DNA from: a virus
Lineage: Duplodnaviria; Heunggongvirae; Uroviricota; Caudoviricetes
IMG/VR virus record: IMGVR_UViG_2778260991_000002
Location: 1-22,668 of that record
Direction: 5' to 3' (one strand)
Length of the DNA: 22,668 nt
Position 1 is the first letter of the stretch; every line of letters starts with the position of its first letter. Below the pieces are notes generated by a model, which was given only the letters and a program-made list of their open reading frames with translations, was not told the DNA's origin and ran no database searches. The translations under genes and the position numbers were made by a program. Shown here piece after piece: positions 492 through 7,414 of this stretch.

Positions 492-520
492 TAATACGCC
501 CCTGCATGGGGCGTATTATT
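490..520. terminator. Strong hairpin between convergent Q and KAP NTPase genes; candidate bidirectional intrinsic terminator
   Basis: Perfect inverted repeat AATACGCCCC (493-502) / GGGGCGTATT (508-517) with loop TGCAT, extendable to about 13 bp (490-520). Overlaps the Q stop (489-491) and the minus-strand KAP stop (520-522). Flanked by moderately U-rich sequence on both strands. Confidence 0.55.
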
Positions 521-1851
521 TACTGGATGAATGACATTTGATTAATATATTTTATCAATAACTCTCTGGGGGTAGTACTCCAAAAATTTATGTGTTCATA
601 ATCAGTATAAACATTTGTGAATTTTTTAAGTTCTTCATCACTTTTAGGGGCAAATCGCTCATTAAGAGTAATACTGTCTTTAATTATTCCGAAGAATACA
701 ATGGATATTTCAGGGATTTGCGATCTTCTCTCATAAGAATAAGGTATTTCTTTTATGTTAAGCAGGTCTGCTAAATAAGATATAGATTCAGCGGTAATTT
801 CTTGTTTTAGTTTTTCCTTGTTACCAAAGCAATGTATGAAGGCAGCTACGACAAAGATCATATTTATTAAAGGATTACTGCTTTTGTTCTCATCGTCGTT
901 TAACAGTTGAAAAATGTTAAGATTGCGTGAAAATGTTTGTGTTTCACGTAATGATAAGTTGGTTCGTTGAATTAAATCACGGATAAAGTAACCTGATAAT
1001 CTATTGATTTTATTCAATAACCTTGTTTTTTCTACAAGATAATCCCAATATATAACAGAGGCTTTACATACGTTGTGACCATTTATCAAACATGTATCTG
1101 GAAGCGTGATGGTATATTTTATAAACTTGTCAAGATATTTTTGTGAGTTAATGCTATAACCATAAATATGATTTATAGATGCTTTTAATTGTTCTGTGTT
1201 TGTAACTAAAATAAAAAAGACATTATTGATGTCAAAAATGTGTTTTATTGTTTCAATAACATTTGTTGAAAAACTCGGCTTACATCGGTCTAATTCATCA
1301 ATTATAATTACGATTTTTTGATTTTTTGATATACTTTCGATGCAGGATTTAAGTGAATTTATGTTTTTCTCTGAGTCCATATGGTCTTCAAGCAAATTTT
1401 CAATAGTCCCATCTATTGCTGCATTGCTTGCTTTCTTCATCGCATCTTGGAATTCTTCGGCAACTTCACTAGCCTCCTGTCGTAAAAACCAACCTGCACC
1501 AGCTTTTAGTACCGTTTTTAAACCAAAGCGAATTGCAGGAAGAGATCTCTTAATGAAGTGTTGTTTTTCTTCCTCAGGCAAAATGCTGGCAATTGCAGAG
1601 GTTATGAGAAGTAATGGAGATTCTGCATGATCCCCTTTAAAGGCATCAATATAAACAACTTTAGATTCAGTTTCTTGCTCAATAATGAGATTTTTCAGTT
1701 TGATACTAAATTCTGTTTTCCCTGTTCCCCATGCGCCGTCTATTACCAGTGGTGAAATGTCTGCCTCTGGTTTTAGCAACTTGATGATATTTTCAGCGAT
1801 GTTTCTTCGTTGGAACTCGTCACGTTCAGTGAAAGATAGTGTATCTAACAT
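520..1851 (-). CDS. KAP-family P-loop NTPase (PifA-like), 443 aa; accessory gene, candidate phage-exclusion/defence protein
   Basis: Walker A with the KAP-typical tryptophan, GAWGTGKT, near the N-terminus, and Walker B IVIIIDELDRC (the DELDRC KAP hallmark). Local GC is much lower than the flanks (about 25% in a sampled 60-nt stretch at 1141-1200, against roughly 55-60% in the structural genes). Opposite strand to all phage late genes. Confidence 0.75.
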   Translation of the reverse strand: MLDTLSFTERDEFQRRNIAENIIKLLKPEADISPLVIDGAWGTGKTEFSIKLKNLIIEQETESKVVYIDAFKGDHAESPLLLITSAIASILPEEEKQHFIKRSLPAIRFGLKTVLKAGAGWFLRQEASEVAEEFQDAMKKASNAAIDGTIENLLEDHMDSEKNINSLKSCIESISKNQKIVIIIDELDRCKPSFSTNVIETIKHIFDINNVFFILVTNTEQLKASINHIYGYSINSQKYLDKFIKYTITLPDTCLINGHNVCKASVIYWDYLVEKTRLLNKINRLSGYFIRDLIQRTNLSLRETQTFSRNLNIFQLLNDDENKSSNPLINMIFVVAAFIHCFGNKEKLKQEITAESISYLADLLNIKEIPYSYERRSQIPEISIVFFGIIKDSITLNERFAPKSDEELKKFTNVYTDYEHINFWSTTPRELLIKYINQMSFIQ

Positions 1852-2465: not shown

Positions 2466-3518
2466 ATGAAAAATACTGTAAAAATAAACAGTGTTGATTT
2501 AATCAACGCTGATTGCCTGCATTTTATTCAGTCCCTGCCTGATGACTCCATTGATCTGATTGTTACCGATCCACCGTACTTCAAAGTGAAGCCCAACGGC
2601 TGGGACAATCAGTGGAAAGGGGACGAAGATTACCTTAAGTGGCTGGACCACTGTCTGGCCCAGTTCTGGCGGGTGTTGAAACCTGCCGGAAGCCTTTACC
2701 TGTTCTGTGGACATCGCCTGGCATCTGATATCGAGATCATGATGCGTGAACGTTTCAATGTGCTTAACCATATCATCTGGGCGAAGCCGTCCGGACGTTG
2801 GAATGGGTGTAATAAAGAAAGTTTGCGCGCATATTTTCCTGCCACAGAGCGCGTTCTGTTTGCTGAACATTACCAGGGGCCATATCGCGGCAAAAGTGAC
2901 GGCTATGCGGCAAAAGAAAGGGAACTCAAACAGCACATAATGGCACCGCTGATATCGTATTTCAGGGATGCTCGTGCCGAACTGGGTATAACGGCAAAAC
3001 AGATTGCCGAAGCCACAGGTAAGAAAAATATGGTTTCCCACTGGTTTGGTGCCAGTCAGTGGCAGTTGCCGAATGAGGCTGACTACCGGAAGTTGCAGGC
3101 ACTTTTTTCCCGTATAGCGGCAGAGAAGTTTCAGAAACAACAACTGGAACAACCACACCACCAGCTGGTGGCATCTTATGATTCACTGAATCGCAAATAT
3201 TCTGAATTGCTGGATGAGTTTAAATCTCTCCGGCGCTATTTCTCCGTATCAGTCTCCGTGCCTTATACCGATGTCTGGATGCATAAACCCGTTCAGTTCT
3301 ACCCGGGTAAACATCCGTGTGAGAAACCGGCGGATATGCTCAGGCAAATAATCAACGCCAGTAGTCGACCAGGTGATCTGGTTGCTGATTTCTTTATGGG
3401 ATCCGGTTCCACAATAAAAGCAGCAATGGCGCTGGGGCGTCGGGCGTTAGGTGTTGAGCTTGAGTCAGAGCGGTTTAACCAGACGGTGAAAGAGGTAAGT
3501 GAACTGGTGGGGAAATAA
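2466..3518 (+). CDS. DNA methyltransferase, beta-class amino-methyltransferase (N6-adenine or N4-cytosine; DPPY suggests N6-adenine), 350 aa, no cognate endonuclease seen
   Basis: Motif IV IVTDPPYF near the N-terminus and AdoMet-binding motif I FFMGSGST near the C-terminus, which is the beta-class order. The central region between them is the presumptive target-recognition domain. No restriction endonuclease gene adjacent. Confidence 0.85.
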   Translation: MKNTVKINSVDLINADCLHFIQSLPDDSIDLIVTDPPYFKVKPNGWDNQWKGDEDYLKWLDHCLAQFWRVLKPAGSLYLFCGHRLASDIEIMMRERFNVLNHIIWAKPSGRWNGCNKESLRAYFPATERVLFAEHYQGPYRGKSDGYAAKERELKQHIMAPLISYFRDARAELGITAKQIAEATGKKNMVSHWFGASQWQLPNEADYRKLQALFSRIAAEKFQKQQLEQPHHQLVASYDSLNRKYSELLDEFKSLRRYFSVSVSVPYTDVWMHKPVQFYPGKHPCEKPADMLRQIINASSRPGDLVADFFMGSGSTIKAAMALGRRALGVELESERFNQTVKEVSELVGK

Positions 3519-3568
3519 TTCTGGTGTCAGAGCTTTTATTCGCTAATTTTTTCACTGGGAGGCTATTT

Positions 3569-3826
3569 ATGCATTCACACCATCATCAAATATCTATGAT
3601 CCCACTTACCATGAGTTCACCCATTAAAGGTTTTTCACTGTATGTAGAAAGCGAAGACATGGCTGTCGCTATAGCTGAGCTTGAAAATGCCTTATCACAG
3701 CTCAAGAATGGAAATAAGGCATTCAAAGAAAGTGGCACGCTGGTTGGTAACGTCAGAGCAAGTTATTGCTATCCTTACCGTCCTCATTGTGCCGCGAAAG
3801 GTCTTTATTGGGATGAAGGGGATTAA
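3569..3826 (+). CDS. Hypothetical protein, 85 aa
   Basis: ORF 3524-3826; start at ATG 3569 preferred because of strong SD GGGAGG (3557-3562) 6 nt upstream. Stop TAA 3824-3826 overlaps the stop of the convergent gene. No recognisable motif. Confidence 0.5.
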   Translation: MHSHHHQISMIPLTMSSPIKGFSLYVESEDMAVAIAELENALSQLKNGNKAFKESGTLVGNVRASYCYPYRPHCAAKGLYWDEGD

Positions 3827-4347
3827 GCAAGGACTTGTTCACCGATAGTTACTGGTAACGGACAAATGTATTCCCAGACTGGATCAGGGTTAAAAGTTTT
3901 TCCTGACCAGTAAAGTTCCATTCTGTAGGTGAATTCCAATACCGATGTATCATTTCTTAATAATGACATATCTCCGCGATGATAACTATCTGTTTGTATT
4001 ATGAAAATTTTATCTGATGGTTTTCCGTCTGTAAGTCGAAAATGTTTAGCCTCCTCCAGGTTACCCCAGGCGAAGAGTGACGTATAGCGAGAAGGTTTTT
4101 GCGGGCAAACTCCTCTTCGGTAAAACTCAAGTCCCCAGTCGATGAGTTCGTTTTTATTATAAATTTTTGCCGCATTATTAATGAGGTATCCTTCGCCTTG
4201 TGGAGCAAGCCCGCGCGGAAAAAGTTTGTCTACCAGAGATGACATTTCAACAGGAGTTATATCGGAGAATTGCTTTGGTGTAACGATATCGCCTGTTGAG
4301 TATATTCCTCGGCGATCAACCATAAATAGTTTCATTAATTTCTCCAT
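3823..4347 (-). CDS. Hypothetical protein, 174 aa, cytoplasmic (no signal peptide), moderately AT-rich accessory gene
   Basis: Uninterrupted 174-codon ORF on the minus strand; sampled GC about 37%. Convergent with the 3569-3826 gene and sharing the 4-nt TTAA stop overlap (3823-3826). No family recognised by eye. Confidence 0.6.
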   Translation of the reverse strand: MEKLMKLFMVDRRGIYSTGDIVTPKQFSDITPVEMSSLVDKLFPRGLAPQGEGYLINNAAKIYNKNELIDWGLEFYRRGVCPQKPSRYTSLFAWGNLEEAKHFRLTDGKPSDKIFIIQTDSYHRGDMSLLRNDTSVLEFTYRMELYWSGKTFNPDPVWEYICPLPVTIGEQVLA

Positions 4348-4575
4348 TGATAGTTGTTACTTTTGGCGATGTAACGATATCAAACGAGAATTTATATCGC
4401 CAGATGCTTAATCTGACACTTCATCTGACCCTAGTATGTGCCGTTTTTTTTATTTAAGGCCGCTGACAGGTCCATTTAGTGCGACGCCTTTCCCCGTTTC
4501 CGCTCCTGGAATATTCGGGGATTTTTTATTCCCTCAATTTGCACCCGCGATATGTGCGAGGTGAGAGATGACGAA

Positions 4576-4911
4576 ATGCCTCATAACCCAAATACCTGGC
4601 CGGACTGGCTGGAGTTGTTCCAGAGCTGGTGGCGTGGAGACACACCACTGGGCGCAGTGATTATGTCGATCGTTATGGCTGGTTTACGTATTGCCTATTT
4701 TGGCGGCGGTGGCGGCTGGAAACGAAAAACACTCGAAATTTTGCTCTGTGGTGCTCTGACGCTGACATTTGCATCCGCTCTTGAGTATGTCGGATGGCCT
4801 AAATCGCTTTCTGTTGCCATTGGTGGTGGCGTGGGGCTGATCGGTGTCGATGCTATTCGTGGGGCTGCAATGCGAGTAATCGGTAACAAATTTGGTAGCT
4901 CGAAGGAGTAA
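4576..4911 (+). CDS. Class I holin (three predicted TM segments), not lambda S-like in sequence
   Basis: ORF 4552-4911. ATG at 4576 preferred (SD GAGGTGAGAG at 4558-4567); upstream in-frame ATG at 4552 could give a longer antiholin-like form. Three hydrophobic stretches (LGAVIMSIVMAGLRIAYF, TLEILLCGALTLTFASALEYVGW, LSVAIGGGVGLIGVDAI) and a charged C-terminus. Immediately precedes endolysin R. Confidence 0.7.
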   Translation: MPHNPNTWPDWLELFQSWWRGDTPLGAVIMSIVMAGLRIAYFGGGGGWKRKTLEILLCGALTLTFASALEYVGWPKSLSVAIGGGVGLIGVDAIRGAAMRVIGNKFGSSKE

Positions 4912-4914
4912 TTT

Positions 4915-5391
4915 ATGCAGGCACTAAATTCCCAGCGTAAAGCTTTCCTTGATATGGTGGCATGGTCAGAAGGAACGGATAACGGGAGACAACCGACACG
5001 TAACCACGGTTATGACGTTATTGTCGGTGGCGAACTCTTCACTGATTACTCCGATCACCCTCGAAAACTTGTCACGCTAAATTCGAAAATCAAATCAACA
5101 GCAGCCGGACGTTACCAACTCCTTTCCCGTTGGTGGGATGCCTACCGCAAGCAGCTTGGTCTGAAAGACTTCTCTCCGAAAAGCCAGGACGCTGTTGCAC
5201 TGCAGCAGATTAAAGAGCGTGGCGCTTTACCGATGATTGATCGCGGTGATATTAGTCAGGCTATCGATCGTTGCAGCAATATCTGGGCTTCACTGCCGGG
5301 CGCTGGTTATGGTCAGTTCGAGCATAAAGTTGACAGCCTGATTGCAAAATTCAAAGAAGCAGGCGGAACGGTCAGAGAGATTGAGGTATGA
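4915..5391 (+). CDS. R: Endolysin R (lambda-type lytic transglycosylase), 158 aa
   Basis: Near-identical to recalled lambda R (…[52 protein letters not shown]…). Start 4 nt after the holin stop; its stop overlaps the Rz start. Confidence 0.95.
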
Positions 5392-5831
5392 GCAGAATAA
5401 CCGCGATTATCTCCGCTCTGGTTATTTGTATCATCGCCTGCCTGTCATTGGCTGTTAATCATTACCGTGATAACGCCATCACCTACAAAGAACAGCGCGA
5501 CAAAGCCGCATCCATTATCGCTGACATGCAGAAGCGTCAACGTGATGTAGCTGAACTCGATGCCAGATACACAAAGGAGCTTGCTGATGCTAACGCGACT
5601 ATCGAAAGTCTTCGTGCTGATGTTTCTGCTGGTCGTAAGTGGCTGTACGTCAAAGCAGTCTGTCCGGACATGCATAAAACCACCGCCGCCTCCGGCGTGG
5701 ATGATGGCGCCAGCCCCAGACTTACTGACACCGCTCAACGGGATTATTTCGTTCTCAGAGAGCGCATCGAAACCATAACTAACCAATTGAATGGCCTGCA
5801 AGAGTATGTGAGATCACAGTGTTCATATTAG
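5388..5831 (+). CDS. Rz: Spanin inner-membrane subunit Rz (i-spanin)
   Basis: N-terminal TM segment [20 protein letters not shown], then a coiled-coil region; matches lambda Rz. ATGA overlap with the R stop. Confidence 0.9.
5587..5778 (+). CDS. Rz1: Spanin outer-membrane lipoprotein subunit Rz1 (o-spanin), embedded in the +1 frame of Rz
   Basis: ORF 5560-5778 lies wholly inside Rz in another frame. ATG at 5587 preferred (SD AAGGAG 7 nt upstream). Lipobox-like LVVSGC followed by TSKQSV and a proline-rich stretch PPPPPAW, as in lambda Rz1. Confidence 0.8.
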
Positions 5832-5869
5832 AAAAGTCTTATCATAAGATTTTTGTATATGGATGCATT

Positions 5870-6244
5870 ATGTCTCAATACGCGCGCGCCGCTTTAATTG
5901 CTTATTATTTGGTTGCTGATAATTCAATATCCCCTCGTGATGCATGGGATGCTGCTGTCGCTGAGGTTACAGAAAGCGAATCGGCAAGAAAGAAGGGATG
6001 CCCAAGGGCAACGTTTCTCGCTCTGGCGGATAGCGGTTATCTGAAGAAAGTAAAACCACATCATGGGGAGAAAAAGATCGGTAAGTTGTACCAAAGGGCA
6101 ATTGAAGTTGCGAATCTGATTCTTGATTTACCCGGAATTAGCAAAGCTGAGCTAGTTGATAAAGCTTGCTATAAAGACAGGCAAGGGTCTTATGACATTG
6201 CTCTAACTCTCGCTCAGTGCGGATTACTCCAGCGTCCTCAATAA
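5870..6244 (+). CDS. Hypothetical protein (about 124 aa) downstream of the lysis cassette, at the position lambda uses for bor/accessory genes
   Basis: ORF 5819-6244 opens with a GTG inside the Rz 3' end; the in-frame ATG at 5870 is the more likely start (weak SD GGA). Followed by a terminator-like hairpin. No motif recognised. Confidence 0.45.
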   Translation: MSQYARAALIAYYLVADNSISPRDAWDAAVAEVTESESARKKGCPRATFLALADSGYLKKVKPHHGEKKIGKLYQRAIEVANLILDLPGISKAELVDKACYKDRQGSYDIALTLAQCGLLQRPQ

Positions 6245-6262
6245 GATATTAAGTGATTTATG

Positions 6263-6286
6263 GCCTCGCTTTTAGCGGGGCTTTTT
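6263..6286 (+). terminator. Rho-independent terminator-like hairpin
   Basis: GCCTCGC (6263-6269) / GCGGGGC (6275-6281) with one G-U pair, loop TTTTA, then T5 (6282-6286). Directly after the 5870-6244 ORF. Confidence 0.5.
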
Positions 6287-6342
6287 CATATCTGAATCTC
6301 ACCATGCATATCATCACCTGACTGGAACGTCAGGAGAATTCG

Positions 6343-6525
6343 TTACGGGGATTCGATAAAGGTATTCAAGCCTGACACATTATGCGCTGTATCGTCGCCG
6401 TATTCCCGCATTAACCATGACCGTAGCCCGACGGGGAATTCCTTCTGCGCGAGTGTGCGGGAATAATCAAAAACGATGCACACCGGGTTTTTACCGCGTT
6501 TATGATTCGCGGGTTTGTCACTCAT
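6343..6525 (-). CDS. Small hypothetical protein (about 60 aa; ORF extends to 6594), possibly a small prophage protein of the kind found just upstream of cos in other lambdoid prophages
   Basis: Minus-strand ORF 6343-6594; the internal Met at 6525 gives MSDKPANHKRGKNPVCIV.... The equivalent lambda region is non-coding as far as I recall, so this may not be a real gene. Confidence 0.25.
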   Translation of the reverse strand: MSDKPANHKRGKNPVCIVFDYSRTLAQKEFPVGLRSWLMREYGDDTAHNVSGLNTFIESP

Positions 6526-6679
6526 GCTCGCCAGTCCTGTGCGGGGGTGGAAGAAACAGGACGTGTATTCAGGTCTGTGCGACCGTGGTCGCACGACTTT
6601 GGTCGTTCAGATATTAAATCCCATTGCGAAGTAAACCCGAATTGCTGGCGGGTCCTTTCCGGCAATCCAGAACGTTACG

Positions 6680-6691
6680 GGGCGGAAGGCT
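6680..6691 (+). other. cosN, the 12-nt cohesive-end site: GGGCGGAAGGCT here, against GGGCGGCGACCT in lambda
   Basis: Flanks match the recalled lambda ends closely (…CGTTACG | 12-mer | CGCGGGTTTTCGCTATTTATGAAAATTTTCCGGTTTAAGG…), and Nu1 starts about 190 nt downstream as in lambda. The 12-mer differs from lambda at positions 7-10. Confidence 0.65.
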
Positions 6692-6868
6692 CGCGGGTTT
6701 TCGCTATTTATGAAAATTTTCCGGTTTAAGGTGTTTCCGTTCTTCTTCGTCGTAACTTAATGTTTTTATTTAAAATACCCCCTGAAAAGAAAGGAAACGA
6801 CAGGTGCTGAAAACGGGCTTTTTGGCCTTTGTCGTTTCCTTTCTCTGTTTTTGTCCGTGGAATGAACA
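6692..6868 (+). promoter_or_regulatory. cosB region (terminase small-subunit binding elements and IHF site) between cosN and Nu1
   Basis: Near-identical to the recalled lambda left-end leader (CGCGGGTTTTCGCTATTTATGAAAATTTTCCGGTTTAAGG...GAAAGGAAACGACAGGTGCTGAAA...), ending at the Nu1 ATG. Individual R and I1 elements not delimited. Confidence 0.55.
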
Positions 6869-7388
6869 ATGGAAGTCAACAAAAAGCAGCTGGCTGACAT
6901 TTTCGGTGCGAGTATCCGTACCATTCAGAACTGGCAGGAACAGGGAATGCCCGTTCTGCGAGGCGGTGGCAAGGGTAATGAGGTGCTTTATGATTCTGCC
7001 GCCGTTATAAAATGGTATGCCGAAAGGGATGCTGAAATTGAGAACGAAAAGCTGCGCCGGGAAGTTGAAGAACTGCGGCAGGCCAGCGAGACAGATCTCC
7101 AGCCAGGGACTATTGAGTACGAACGCCATCGACTTACGCGTGCGCAGGCCGACGCACAGGAGCTGAAAAATGCCAGAGACTCCGCTGAAGTGGTGGAAAC
7201 CGCATTCTGTACTTTCGTGCTGTCGCGGATCGCAGGTGAAATTGCCAGTATTCTCGACGGGATCCCCCTGTCGGTGCAGCGGCGTTTTCCGGAACTGGAA
7301 AACCGACATGTTGATTTCCTGAAACGGGATATCATCAAAGCCATGAACAAAGCAGCCGCGCTGGATGAACTGATACCGGGGTTGCTGA

Positions 7389-7414
<26 letters not shown>
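6869..7414 (+). CDS. Nu1: Terminase small subunit Nu1
   Basis: 181 aa, essentially identical to recalled lambda Nu1 (MEVNKKQLADIFGASIRTIQNWQEQGMPVLRGGGKGNEVLYDSAAVIKWYAERDAEIENEKLRREVEELRQ...), including the N-terminal wHTH. Confidence 0.97.

Follow-up and report, generated by a model that had tools for sequence, protein, structure and literature searches.

Comparison of related sequences identifies positions 5870-6244 of the window (the whole stretch of 22,668 nucleotides that was analysed) as a cargo gene that a lambda-like prophage acquired horizontally and carries in a variable slot after the spanin gene Rz. Its 124-residue product belongs to DUF6979, which Pfam and RefSeq already catalogue as a family. 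The gene belongs to a mobile unit which, as delimited by alignment of E. coli and Salmonella copies, comprises the 3' end of Rz, a conserved 49-nt leader, the DUF6979 gene and an intrinsic terminator (about 5732/5821-6292). We tentatively favour a reading in which the DUF6979 protein is cargo that serves in phage-host or phage-phage conflict and is made from the late transcript, with an Rz-coupled leader in front of the gene and an insulating terminator behind it.

The window represents the late region of a lambda-like prophage. The features that bear on the gene are given below, with the strand where it is relevant.

123-491, Q antiterminator (PF06530)
4552-4911, holin (phrog_126)
4915-5391, endolysin R
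5388-5831, + strand, Rz spanin gene, taken from the ORF list (named 'lysis protein' or Rz in relatives; PF03245 in related loci)
5560-5778, + strand, Rz1, embedded in Rz
5732-5831, + strand, Rz 3' end that travels with the gene, forming the left part of the transferable unit (seen as a remnant in prophages L083 and L085)
5819-5869, + strand, conserved non-coding leader, overlapping the last Rz codons (to 5831), in which TATTAGAAAAGTCTTATCAT is invariant
5870-6244, + strand, DUF6979 coding sequence, ATG start, 124 aa, stop included in the coordinates (Pfam PF22399, phrog_5039, dN/dS, AlphaFold2 model)
6262-6292, + strand, Rho-independent terminator (stem 6262-6282, T-run 6283-6287), with which the transferable unit ends on the right
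6680-6691, + strand, cosN (GGGCGGAAGGCT), placed by alignment of window 6649-6900 to phage DE3, in which cos is annotated
6869-7414, Nu1, taken from the ORF list, with terminase A after it

Several accessory genes are also found between the Q antiterminator and the holin gene.

The ATG of the DUF6979 gene lies 38 nt beyond the end of Rz and, with cosN at 6680-6691, no other + strand gene follows it on the right arm of the virion. The original prediction of a forward-strand accessory gene between Rz/Rz1 and cos is therefore borne out. It had also assigned the gene to the slot that holds bor in lambda, and here too the comparison agrees: phage PhiR34_1 carries a bor segment in place of window 5762-6383, with homology resuming on both sides, so the DUF6979 gene occupies the bor slot. 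The GC content of the DUF6979 unit is 45.3%, compared with 49.1% for Rz, 52.4% for Nu1 and 53.1% for the whole window (flanks 49-54%). A small convergent ORF at 6343-6525 was considered as the second member of a toxin-antitoxin pair and rejected, as the SfI-type and Salmonella contexts lack it. An Rfam scan of 5300-7000 found no known RNA.

The ORF list contains a + strand ORF at 5819-6244 with a GTG start and 141 codons for amino acids, and the product had been put at 124-141 aa. The ORF exists, but its longer form is not the gene. In the closest chromosomal relatives a strong Shine-Dalgarno sequence and upstream stop codons are found at the ATG equivalent to 5870, and the leader of prophage L104 contains one additional T, a 1-nt insertion that shifts the GTG into another reading frame; the 141-aa form was rejected on these grounds. 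Distant DUF6979 relatives all start at the equivalent methionine and the family alignment runs end to end, which together with the upstream signals of the close relatives and the L104 frame break makes ATG 5870 the true start. Substitutions within the 17 codons between the GTG and the ATG fall 6:1:2 at codon positions 1:2:3. We judge the 17-codon GTG extension to be non-coding and the gene to run from ATG 5870 to 6244, encoding 124 aa.

Residues 1-121 of this protein align to positions 1-127 of the 127 in the Pfam DUF6979 model PF22399 (E 6.9e-28), scoring 97.8 bits against a curated gathering threshold of 27 bits, with alignment to the full model required. The whole protein (1-124 of 124) also aligns to phrog_5039, a family of unknown function (E 6.8e-67). 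The description of the gene as unassigned thus has to be given up: it is a member of DUF6979, and RefSeq already names it 'DUF6979 family protein', as in WP_039264502.1 of E. coli M18. The DNA at 5800-6300 is 99.4% identical to the M18 locus, 3 of the 124 residues are different in the M18 protein, and the identity of the window protein to the phage copies is 80-92%. A literature search on DUF6979, its PHROG and the locus tags found no paper, and the SfI genome paper is silent on the ORF.

The DUF6979 protein has a mass of 13.6 kDa and a pI of 8.97, in a family with a median pI of 9.2 and 86% of members above 8. It contains no signal peptide and no membrane segment (the highest 19-residue Kyte-Doolittle mean is 1.05), and inspection of the sequence near the N-terminus revealed no Cys-containing lipobox. 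The AlphaFold2 model, built with 123 sequences (pLDDT 91, pTM 0.87), is all-alpha with six main helices, helical segments being placed at residues 3-16, 22-33, 37-40, 43-54, 72-86, 92-99 and 107-116. The partly hydrophobic N-terminal stretch remarked on in the original prediction, ARAALIAYYLVA, is real. It is, however, helix 1 (residues 3-16, pLDDT about 94) of a globular helical domain, is charged in most family members, and is modelled as a buried or amphipathic helix of a soluble domain, not as a membrane segment.

Residues W26, K42, C44, P45, L50, G56, K72 and L95 are invariant in the family (44- and 123-sequence alignments). All the diagnostic ones are present in the window protein, which has the DUF6979 hallmarks of W26, K42-x-C44-P45, G56 and a length of about 125 aa. 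No enzymatic signature was recognised beyond the invariant K-x-C-P motif, and no solved relative of the modelled fold was found. Searches of PDB sequences with close and broad profiles returned nothing or spurious matches (caspase-4 pro-peptide, interferon), a scan of the protein against NCBIfam gave nothing meaningful, and a PADLOC-DB v2 scan matched 0 families at E up to 1.

The family extends far beyond phages. An exhaustive HMMER search (E up to 1e-3) recovered at least 527 representatives at 50% identity, nearly all of them stand-alone proteins of 120-140 aa, and a word-indexed search recovered 1,719 clusters at 90% identity. Their hosts include both bacteria and archaea (Paenibacillus, Acidobacteriota, Chloroflexota, Verrucomicrobiota, spirochaetes, Neisseria, gammaproteobacteria and methanogens). 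One apparent fusion (P0076, 1,629 aa) proved to be a spurious repeat match, and the portions of P0090 (348 aa, C-terminal) and P0106 (89 aa, N-terminal) that lie outside DUF6979 matched no Pfam family. Only 9 of 50,697 phage records, all lambdoid, and 1 of 72,556 plasmid records carry DUF6979. Since phages and plasmids carry the family so rarely, the prophage copy must have been acquired from the genes of cells or islands.

No conserved partner gene was detected in 65 loci, either by blastp and phmmer clustering or by Pfam and PADLOC scans of 276 neighbours. The type I restriction-modification gene hsdM lies within two genes of DUF6979 in 4 of the 65 loci, and RhuM is found in 3 of 65. A random gene can be expected within two genes of hsdM about once per thousand genes and, measured against this rough estimate with no matched control, the proximity to hsdM would be far above chance. 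Abi_alpha stands beside DUF6979 in the nrdA-nrdB region of Neisseria, one island has the order Zorya-I, DUF6979, GmrSD, integrase, and another has BREX, a DUF6979 fusion, McrBC. The Methanoculleus gene is located on an integrase-bearing element, and other neighbours include QueC/TGT, AAA_15/21 and DUF4407. Many homologues lie among genes of metabolism or housekeeping (the paa operon, the putP-efeU interval, a position beside a Zip transporter), so the association with defence is only partial.

It is the combination of a mostly chromosomal family, the lack of a fixed partner, the occurrence on defence islands and integrative elements, and the lack of an enzymatic signature beyond K-x-C-P that leads us to propose a lone role in conflict. 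The DUF6979 protein would act by itself as a binding protein for nucleic acid or a partner protein, and its role would lie in exclusion, counter-defence or their regulation, not in lysis, the envelope or packaging. A more far-reaching version, which we regard as doubtful, holds that DUF6979 is an unrecognised and widespread single-gene conflict player with K-x-C-P as its site. It would serve in exclusion or defence, in counter-defence, or as a sensor or regulator of type I restriction-modification, GmrSD or McrBC, and would have been captured by lambdoid prophages and placed under Rz-gated translation.

The DUF6979 gene was found in 249 of 5,426 complete E. coli genomes (4.6%; counted at 90-100% DNA identity over the 5' part of the gene), always on the chromosome and in one copy each. 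Each of the E. coli matches listed adjoins an Rz 'lysis protein' gene, and nearly all are annotated 'DUF6979 family protein'. A degraded remnant, which had been set beforehand as one outcome that would count against the prediction, is not what these copies represent: each of the 29 E. coli entries listed for the 5' part of the gene carries the annotation of an intact protein. The gene is also present in phages 4A7, D2, 1W, 3W, Lambda_4C10, mEp460 and SfI (orf65), and in Salmonella and other enteric prophages. In the enteric prophages examined it always follows Rz on the same strand, and four different types of packaging module are found downstream of it: lambda Nu1/A in the window, HNH+TerS/TerL in SfI and L087, KilA-N with another TerL in Salmonella L083-86 and L102, and a P22-like GP3/Terminase_6 module in L104.

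The limits of the transferable unit are apparent from the comparison of E. coli with Salmonella, in which homology extends from 5732 to exactly 6292, just beyond the terminator; elsewhere in Salmonella it begins at 5795 or 5821. Salmonella prophages L083 and L085 retain an untranslatable remnant of the window-type Rz 3' end (87% identical) between a different, complete Rz and the gene, so that the functional Rz is ~320 nt from the DUF6979 gene, and in L084 an insertion sequence is located 49 nt 5' of the DUF6979 ATG. Between E. coli and Salmonella the Rz-end segment is 87% identical, the 49-nt leader 84% (41/49) and the terminator 90% (28/31). The corresponding values are 60% for the third codon positions of DUF6979 and 41%, with gaps, for the 17-nt 3' spacer before the terminator, and the flanking elements are thus conserved well above the neutral level.

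A terminator belonging to the gene had been predicted as a hairpin at 6263-6286 and was confirmed with slightly different limits (6262-6282, with a T-run behind it). Nine base pairs, six of them G-C, enclose a 3-nt loop, the hairpin is followed by TTTTTCATAT, and the structure folds at -17.1 kcal/mol (z = -3.84), with 0 of 200 shuffles as stable. The structure is strand-specific, the - strand reaching only -9.8 kcal/mol and lacking a U-tract, and it is missing in the SfI/L087 lineage. The terminator would halt polymerase travelling without Q, for example from a weak lysogen promoter, before it reaches cos and the head genes.

A search of the + strand upstream of the DUF6979 gene for sigma-70 promoters matching at 9/12 positions or better found none. 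The best candidates by eye are TTCATA-17-TAAGAT (8/12, 5822-5850) and an invariant TATCAT (5840-5845) that has no -35 element. Conservation exceeds the neutral level over the 138 nt that precede the ATG, a pattern that an RNA hairpin could equally explain. Such a hairpin is predicted at 5819-5866, where the end of Rz (5819-5828) pairs with the Shine-Dalgarno region (5857-5866). Its stability of -19.4 kcal/mol (z -2.0; Salmonella copy z -1.65) is a modest margin over shuffles, and the leader hairpins of the E. coli and Salmonella lineages have shifted registers with no compensatory pairs. Because no canonical promoter is detectable and the gene lies so close behind Rz, we infer that it is expressed at the very least as part of the Q-antiterminated late transcript, which would read through the terminator. 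Expression from the repressed prophage, the key property of a moron, is unsupported, as no promoter was detected, and this counts against the moron part of the favoured reading. The leader hairpin, with the last Rz codons as its 5' arm, would hide the ribosome-binding site, and since Rz codons are predicted to form this arm, translation of DUF6979 may be coupled to that of Rz. The coupling could not operate in L083 and L085, where the Rz remnant is untranslatable.

Four alternatives to a role in conflict were weighed; in descending order of likelihood they are a late function linked to lysis, a small regulator of transcription, a neutral passenger and, as an unlikely last, a Bor-like envelope factor. 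According to the first of these, the protein is a late phage function, made only together with S-R-Rz from pR', that modulates lysis timing, spanin action or another lytic step. We consider this improbable, although several features of the locus speak for it: the constant position directly after Rz on the same strand in all enteric prophages examined, the short gap with no detectable promoter, the pairing of the leader with the Rz end, and the co-travelling Rz 3' end. Against it, DUF6979 is overwhelmingly a non-phage family that reaches into archaea and metabolic operons, and most lambdoid phages lack the gene, the slot holding bor or other genes instead. The protein has no membrane or periplasmic targeting, and the lysis-protein hallmarks that were looked for (transmembrane segments and an outer-membrane lipoprotein signal) are missing from it, while the PHROG family that it matches is not one of the lysis families. 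The distance from the functional Rz in L083 and L085 and the insertion sequence in L084 likewise count against a strict link to lysis, and a conserved terminator would have no purpose if the gene were purely Q-dependent.

The second alternative, to which we give a similarly low probability, is a small DNA-binding transcription regulator with a winged-helix-like C-terminal half that would reprogramme host or prophage genes in the lysogen. Comparison with helix-turn-helix and winged-helix domains gave no significant structural or profile similarity. A NusB-like antitermination fold was also considered; neither a Z score well above background nor profile similarity was obtained.

The third alternative, that the gene is a passenger from which neither phage nor host now benefits, kept only by linkage and recent spread, bears on the question of selection. 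A dN/dS of about 1 between close variants (window vs 4A7) could represent relaxed constraint and fits with such a passenger, as do the presence of the gene in only 4.6% of E. coli genomes and the fact that no function is detectable. In E. coli-Salmonella comparisons, on the other hand, dN/dS is 0.19-0.30 at a dS of about 0.9, which indicates that the DUF6979 gene is under purifying selection. The intactness of all the listed E. coli copies, the conservation of leader and terminator above the neutral level, the retention of the gene in heavily deleted prophage remnants, and the maintenance of the family with its invariant residues across bacteria and archaea also argue against a mere passenger, and make it a poor candidate.

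The weakest alternative, and the lead that the original prediction had followed, is a Bor-like lysogenic-conversion factor acting at the envelope in serum resistance, adhesion or surface exclusion; the exact bor slot, the moron-like GC and terminator and the partly hydrophobic N-terminal helix agree with it, but it is most improbable, as signal peptide, lipobox and membrane segment are all lacking in the protein, helix 1 lies within a confidently modelled globular domain and is charged in most members, the Pfam scan of the protein matched DUF6979 with no match to Bor, and the family is basic and cytoplasmic-looking.

For the present the gain lies mainly in annotation: the start codon, the family, the non-envelope nature of the protein and the transferable unit have been defined. 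If the favoured role in conflict is true, DUF6979 would add a very small and structurally new component to the catalogue of conflict systems, and would give a function to a gene found in ~1/20 complete E. coli genomes, in prophages of Salmonella and Shigella and in hundreds of clusters from other phyla. The leader and terminator architecture, if true, would be a compact case of a phage both insulating and dosing its cargo within the late operon.

The moron concept comes from Juhala and Hendrix, and HK97 gene 15 is an example. A textbook moron stands out by its GC content and has a promoter and a terminator of its own (PMC3594210). The DUF6979 unit shows presence or absence among relatives, deviating GC and its own factor-independent terminator. 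It resembles lambda bor and the lambdoid morons in its slot between Rz and cos, its patchy presence, its GC and its terminator, but differs from them in having no detectable promoter of its own. The DUF6979 gene lies on the late-operon strand, whereas bor is antiparallel to it; its product is predicted to be cytoplasmic, whereas Bor is a lipoprotein; and the protein has no sequence or fold relationship to either Bor or HK97 gp15. Compared with typical defence effectors DUF6979 is much smaller, and many of its copies lie outside defence islands. It also differs from the passengers of such islands (RhuM, Abi_alpha and regulators such as BrxR) in having no PADLOC homology and no demonstrable WYL, HTH or nuclease domain. 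Like these passengers, however, relatives of DUF6979 are found beside type I restriction-modification, Zorya/GmrSD and BREX/McrBC systems, and have a sporadic, cross-phylum distribution on integrase-bearing islands.

The DUF6979 gene (window 5870-6244) and its relative in phage 4A7 differ by 10 amino-acid changes at a dS of 0.043, giving a dN/dS of approximately 1. Four of the 10 changes (positions 6, 10, 13 and 17) lie on one face of helix 1 in the modelled protein; this face may form an interaction surface that varies, or may just be exposed. Window 5800-6300 is 99.4% identical in E. coli M18 and, at an equal level, in several further genomes (strains M1, M3, M8, C10, C11 and others).

The gene is found intact in a prophage remnant of E. 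coli M18 (NZ_CP010219.1, 972573-987073), which has undergone heavy deletions and shows two fusions: one joins recT with an R fragment, and the other, nu1-lom, is annotated as an 'Ail/Lom' protein. Rz, the DUF6979 gene and a small convergent ORF are retained in this remnant. In a Salmonella relative (GCA_006022295.1), an IS3-type insertion sequence (4710-5914, encoding HTH_Tnp_1 and rve domains) lies between Rz and the DUF6979 gene, and since it stops 49 nt upstream of the ATG, the core of the conserved leader is retained.

The small ORF lies 3' of the DUF6979 gene:

6343-6525, minus strand: convergent ORF of 60 amino acids counted from its ATG, in a frame open up to a GTG at 6594.

It has no family match and is annotated as 'hypothetical protein' in the RefSeq entry for E. 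coli M18, as well as in phages 4A7 and D2. Over 6383-6560, DNA conservation with PhiR34_1, a Bor-type phage, is 86%, and that phage has no annotated feature there. The ORF is missing from the SfI-type and Salmonella contexts of the DUF6979 gene and, judged on this gene content, the two are unlinked.

In the wider family the only clear domain fusion seen was P0090 (locus L099, 6001-7431), in which DUF6979 is followed by a C-terminal region of 348 amino acids with no Pfam family. P0090 is flanked by a BREX system (PglX, PglZ, BrxL) on one side and McrBC on the other. In Neisseria spp. (loci L053 and L066) the gene order is nrdA, Abi_alpha, nrdB, DUF6979 and a 2Fe-2S ferredoxin, so that the ribonucleotide reductase operon holds two passenger genes, which suggests a local accessory-gene hotspot.

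The window carries further accessory genes between Q and the holin gene:

520-1851, minus strand: KAP-family P-loop NTPase of 442 amino acids, antiparallel to and directly downstream of Q.
2466-3518, plus strand: type-II-like DNA methyltransferase.
3524-3826, plus strand: ORF following the methyltransferase, with no matches in Pfam, PHROGs or PADLOC.
3823-4347, minus strand: second ORF after the methyltransferase, matching phrog_5663, a family of unknown function.

The NTPase matches the candidate defence system PDC-S20 in PADLOC (E 5.6e-177), with weaker matches to PifA and QatA. On these matches, the accessory slot between Q and S probably holds a defence gene in this prophage.

Just 5' of the Nu1 start codon lies an imperfect palindrome:

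6788-6844: inverted repeat with 26-nt arms, 81% complementary, and a 5-nt gap; positions 6815-6828 resemble a terminator weakly.

cosN was placed at 6680-6691 (GGGCGGAAGGCT) by alignment with phage DE3, whose cos site is annotated. It differs at four of 12 positions from the lambda cosN, GGGCGGCGACCT, and the surrounding cos and Nu1 region is otherwise approximately 94% lambda-like.
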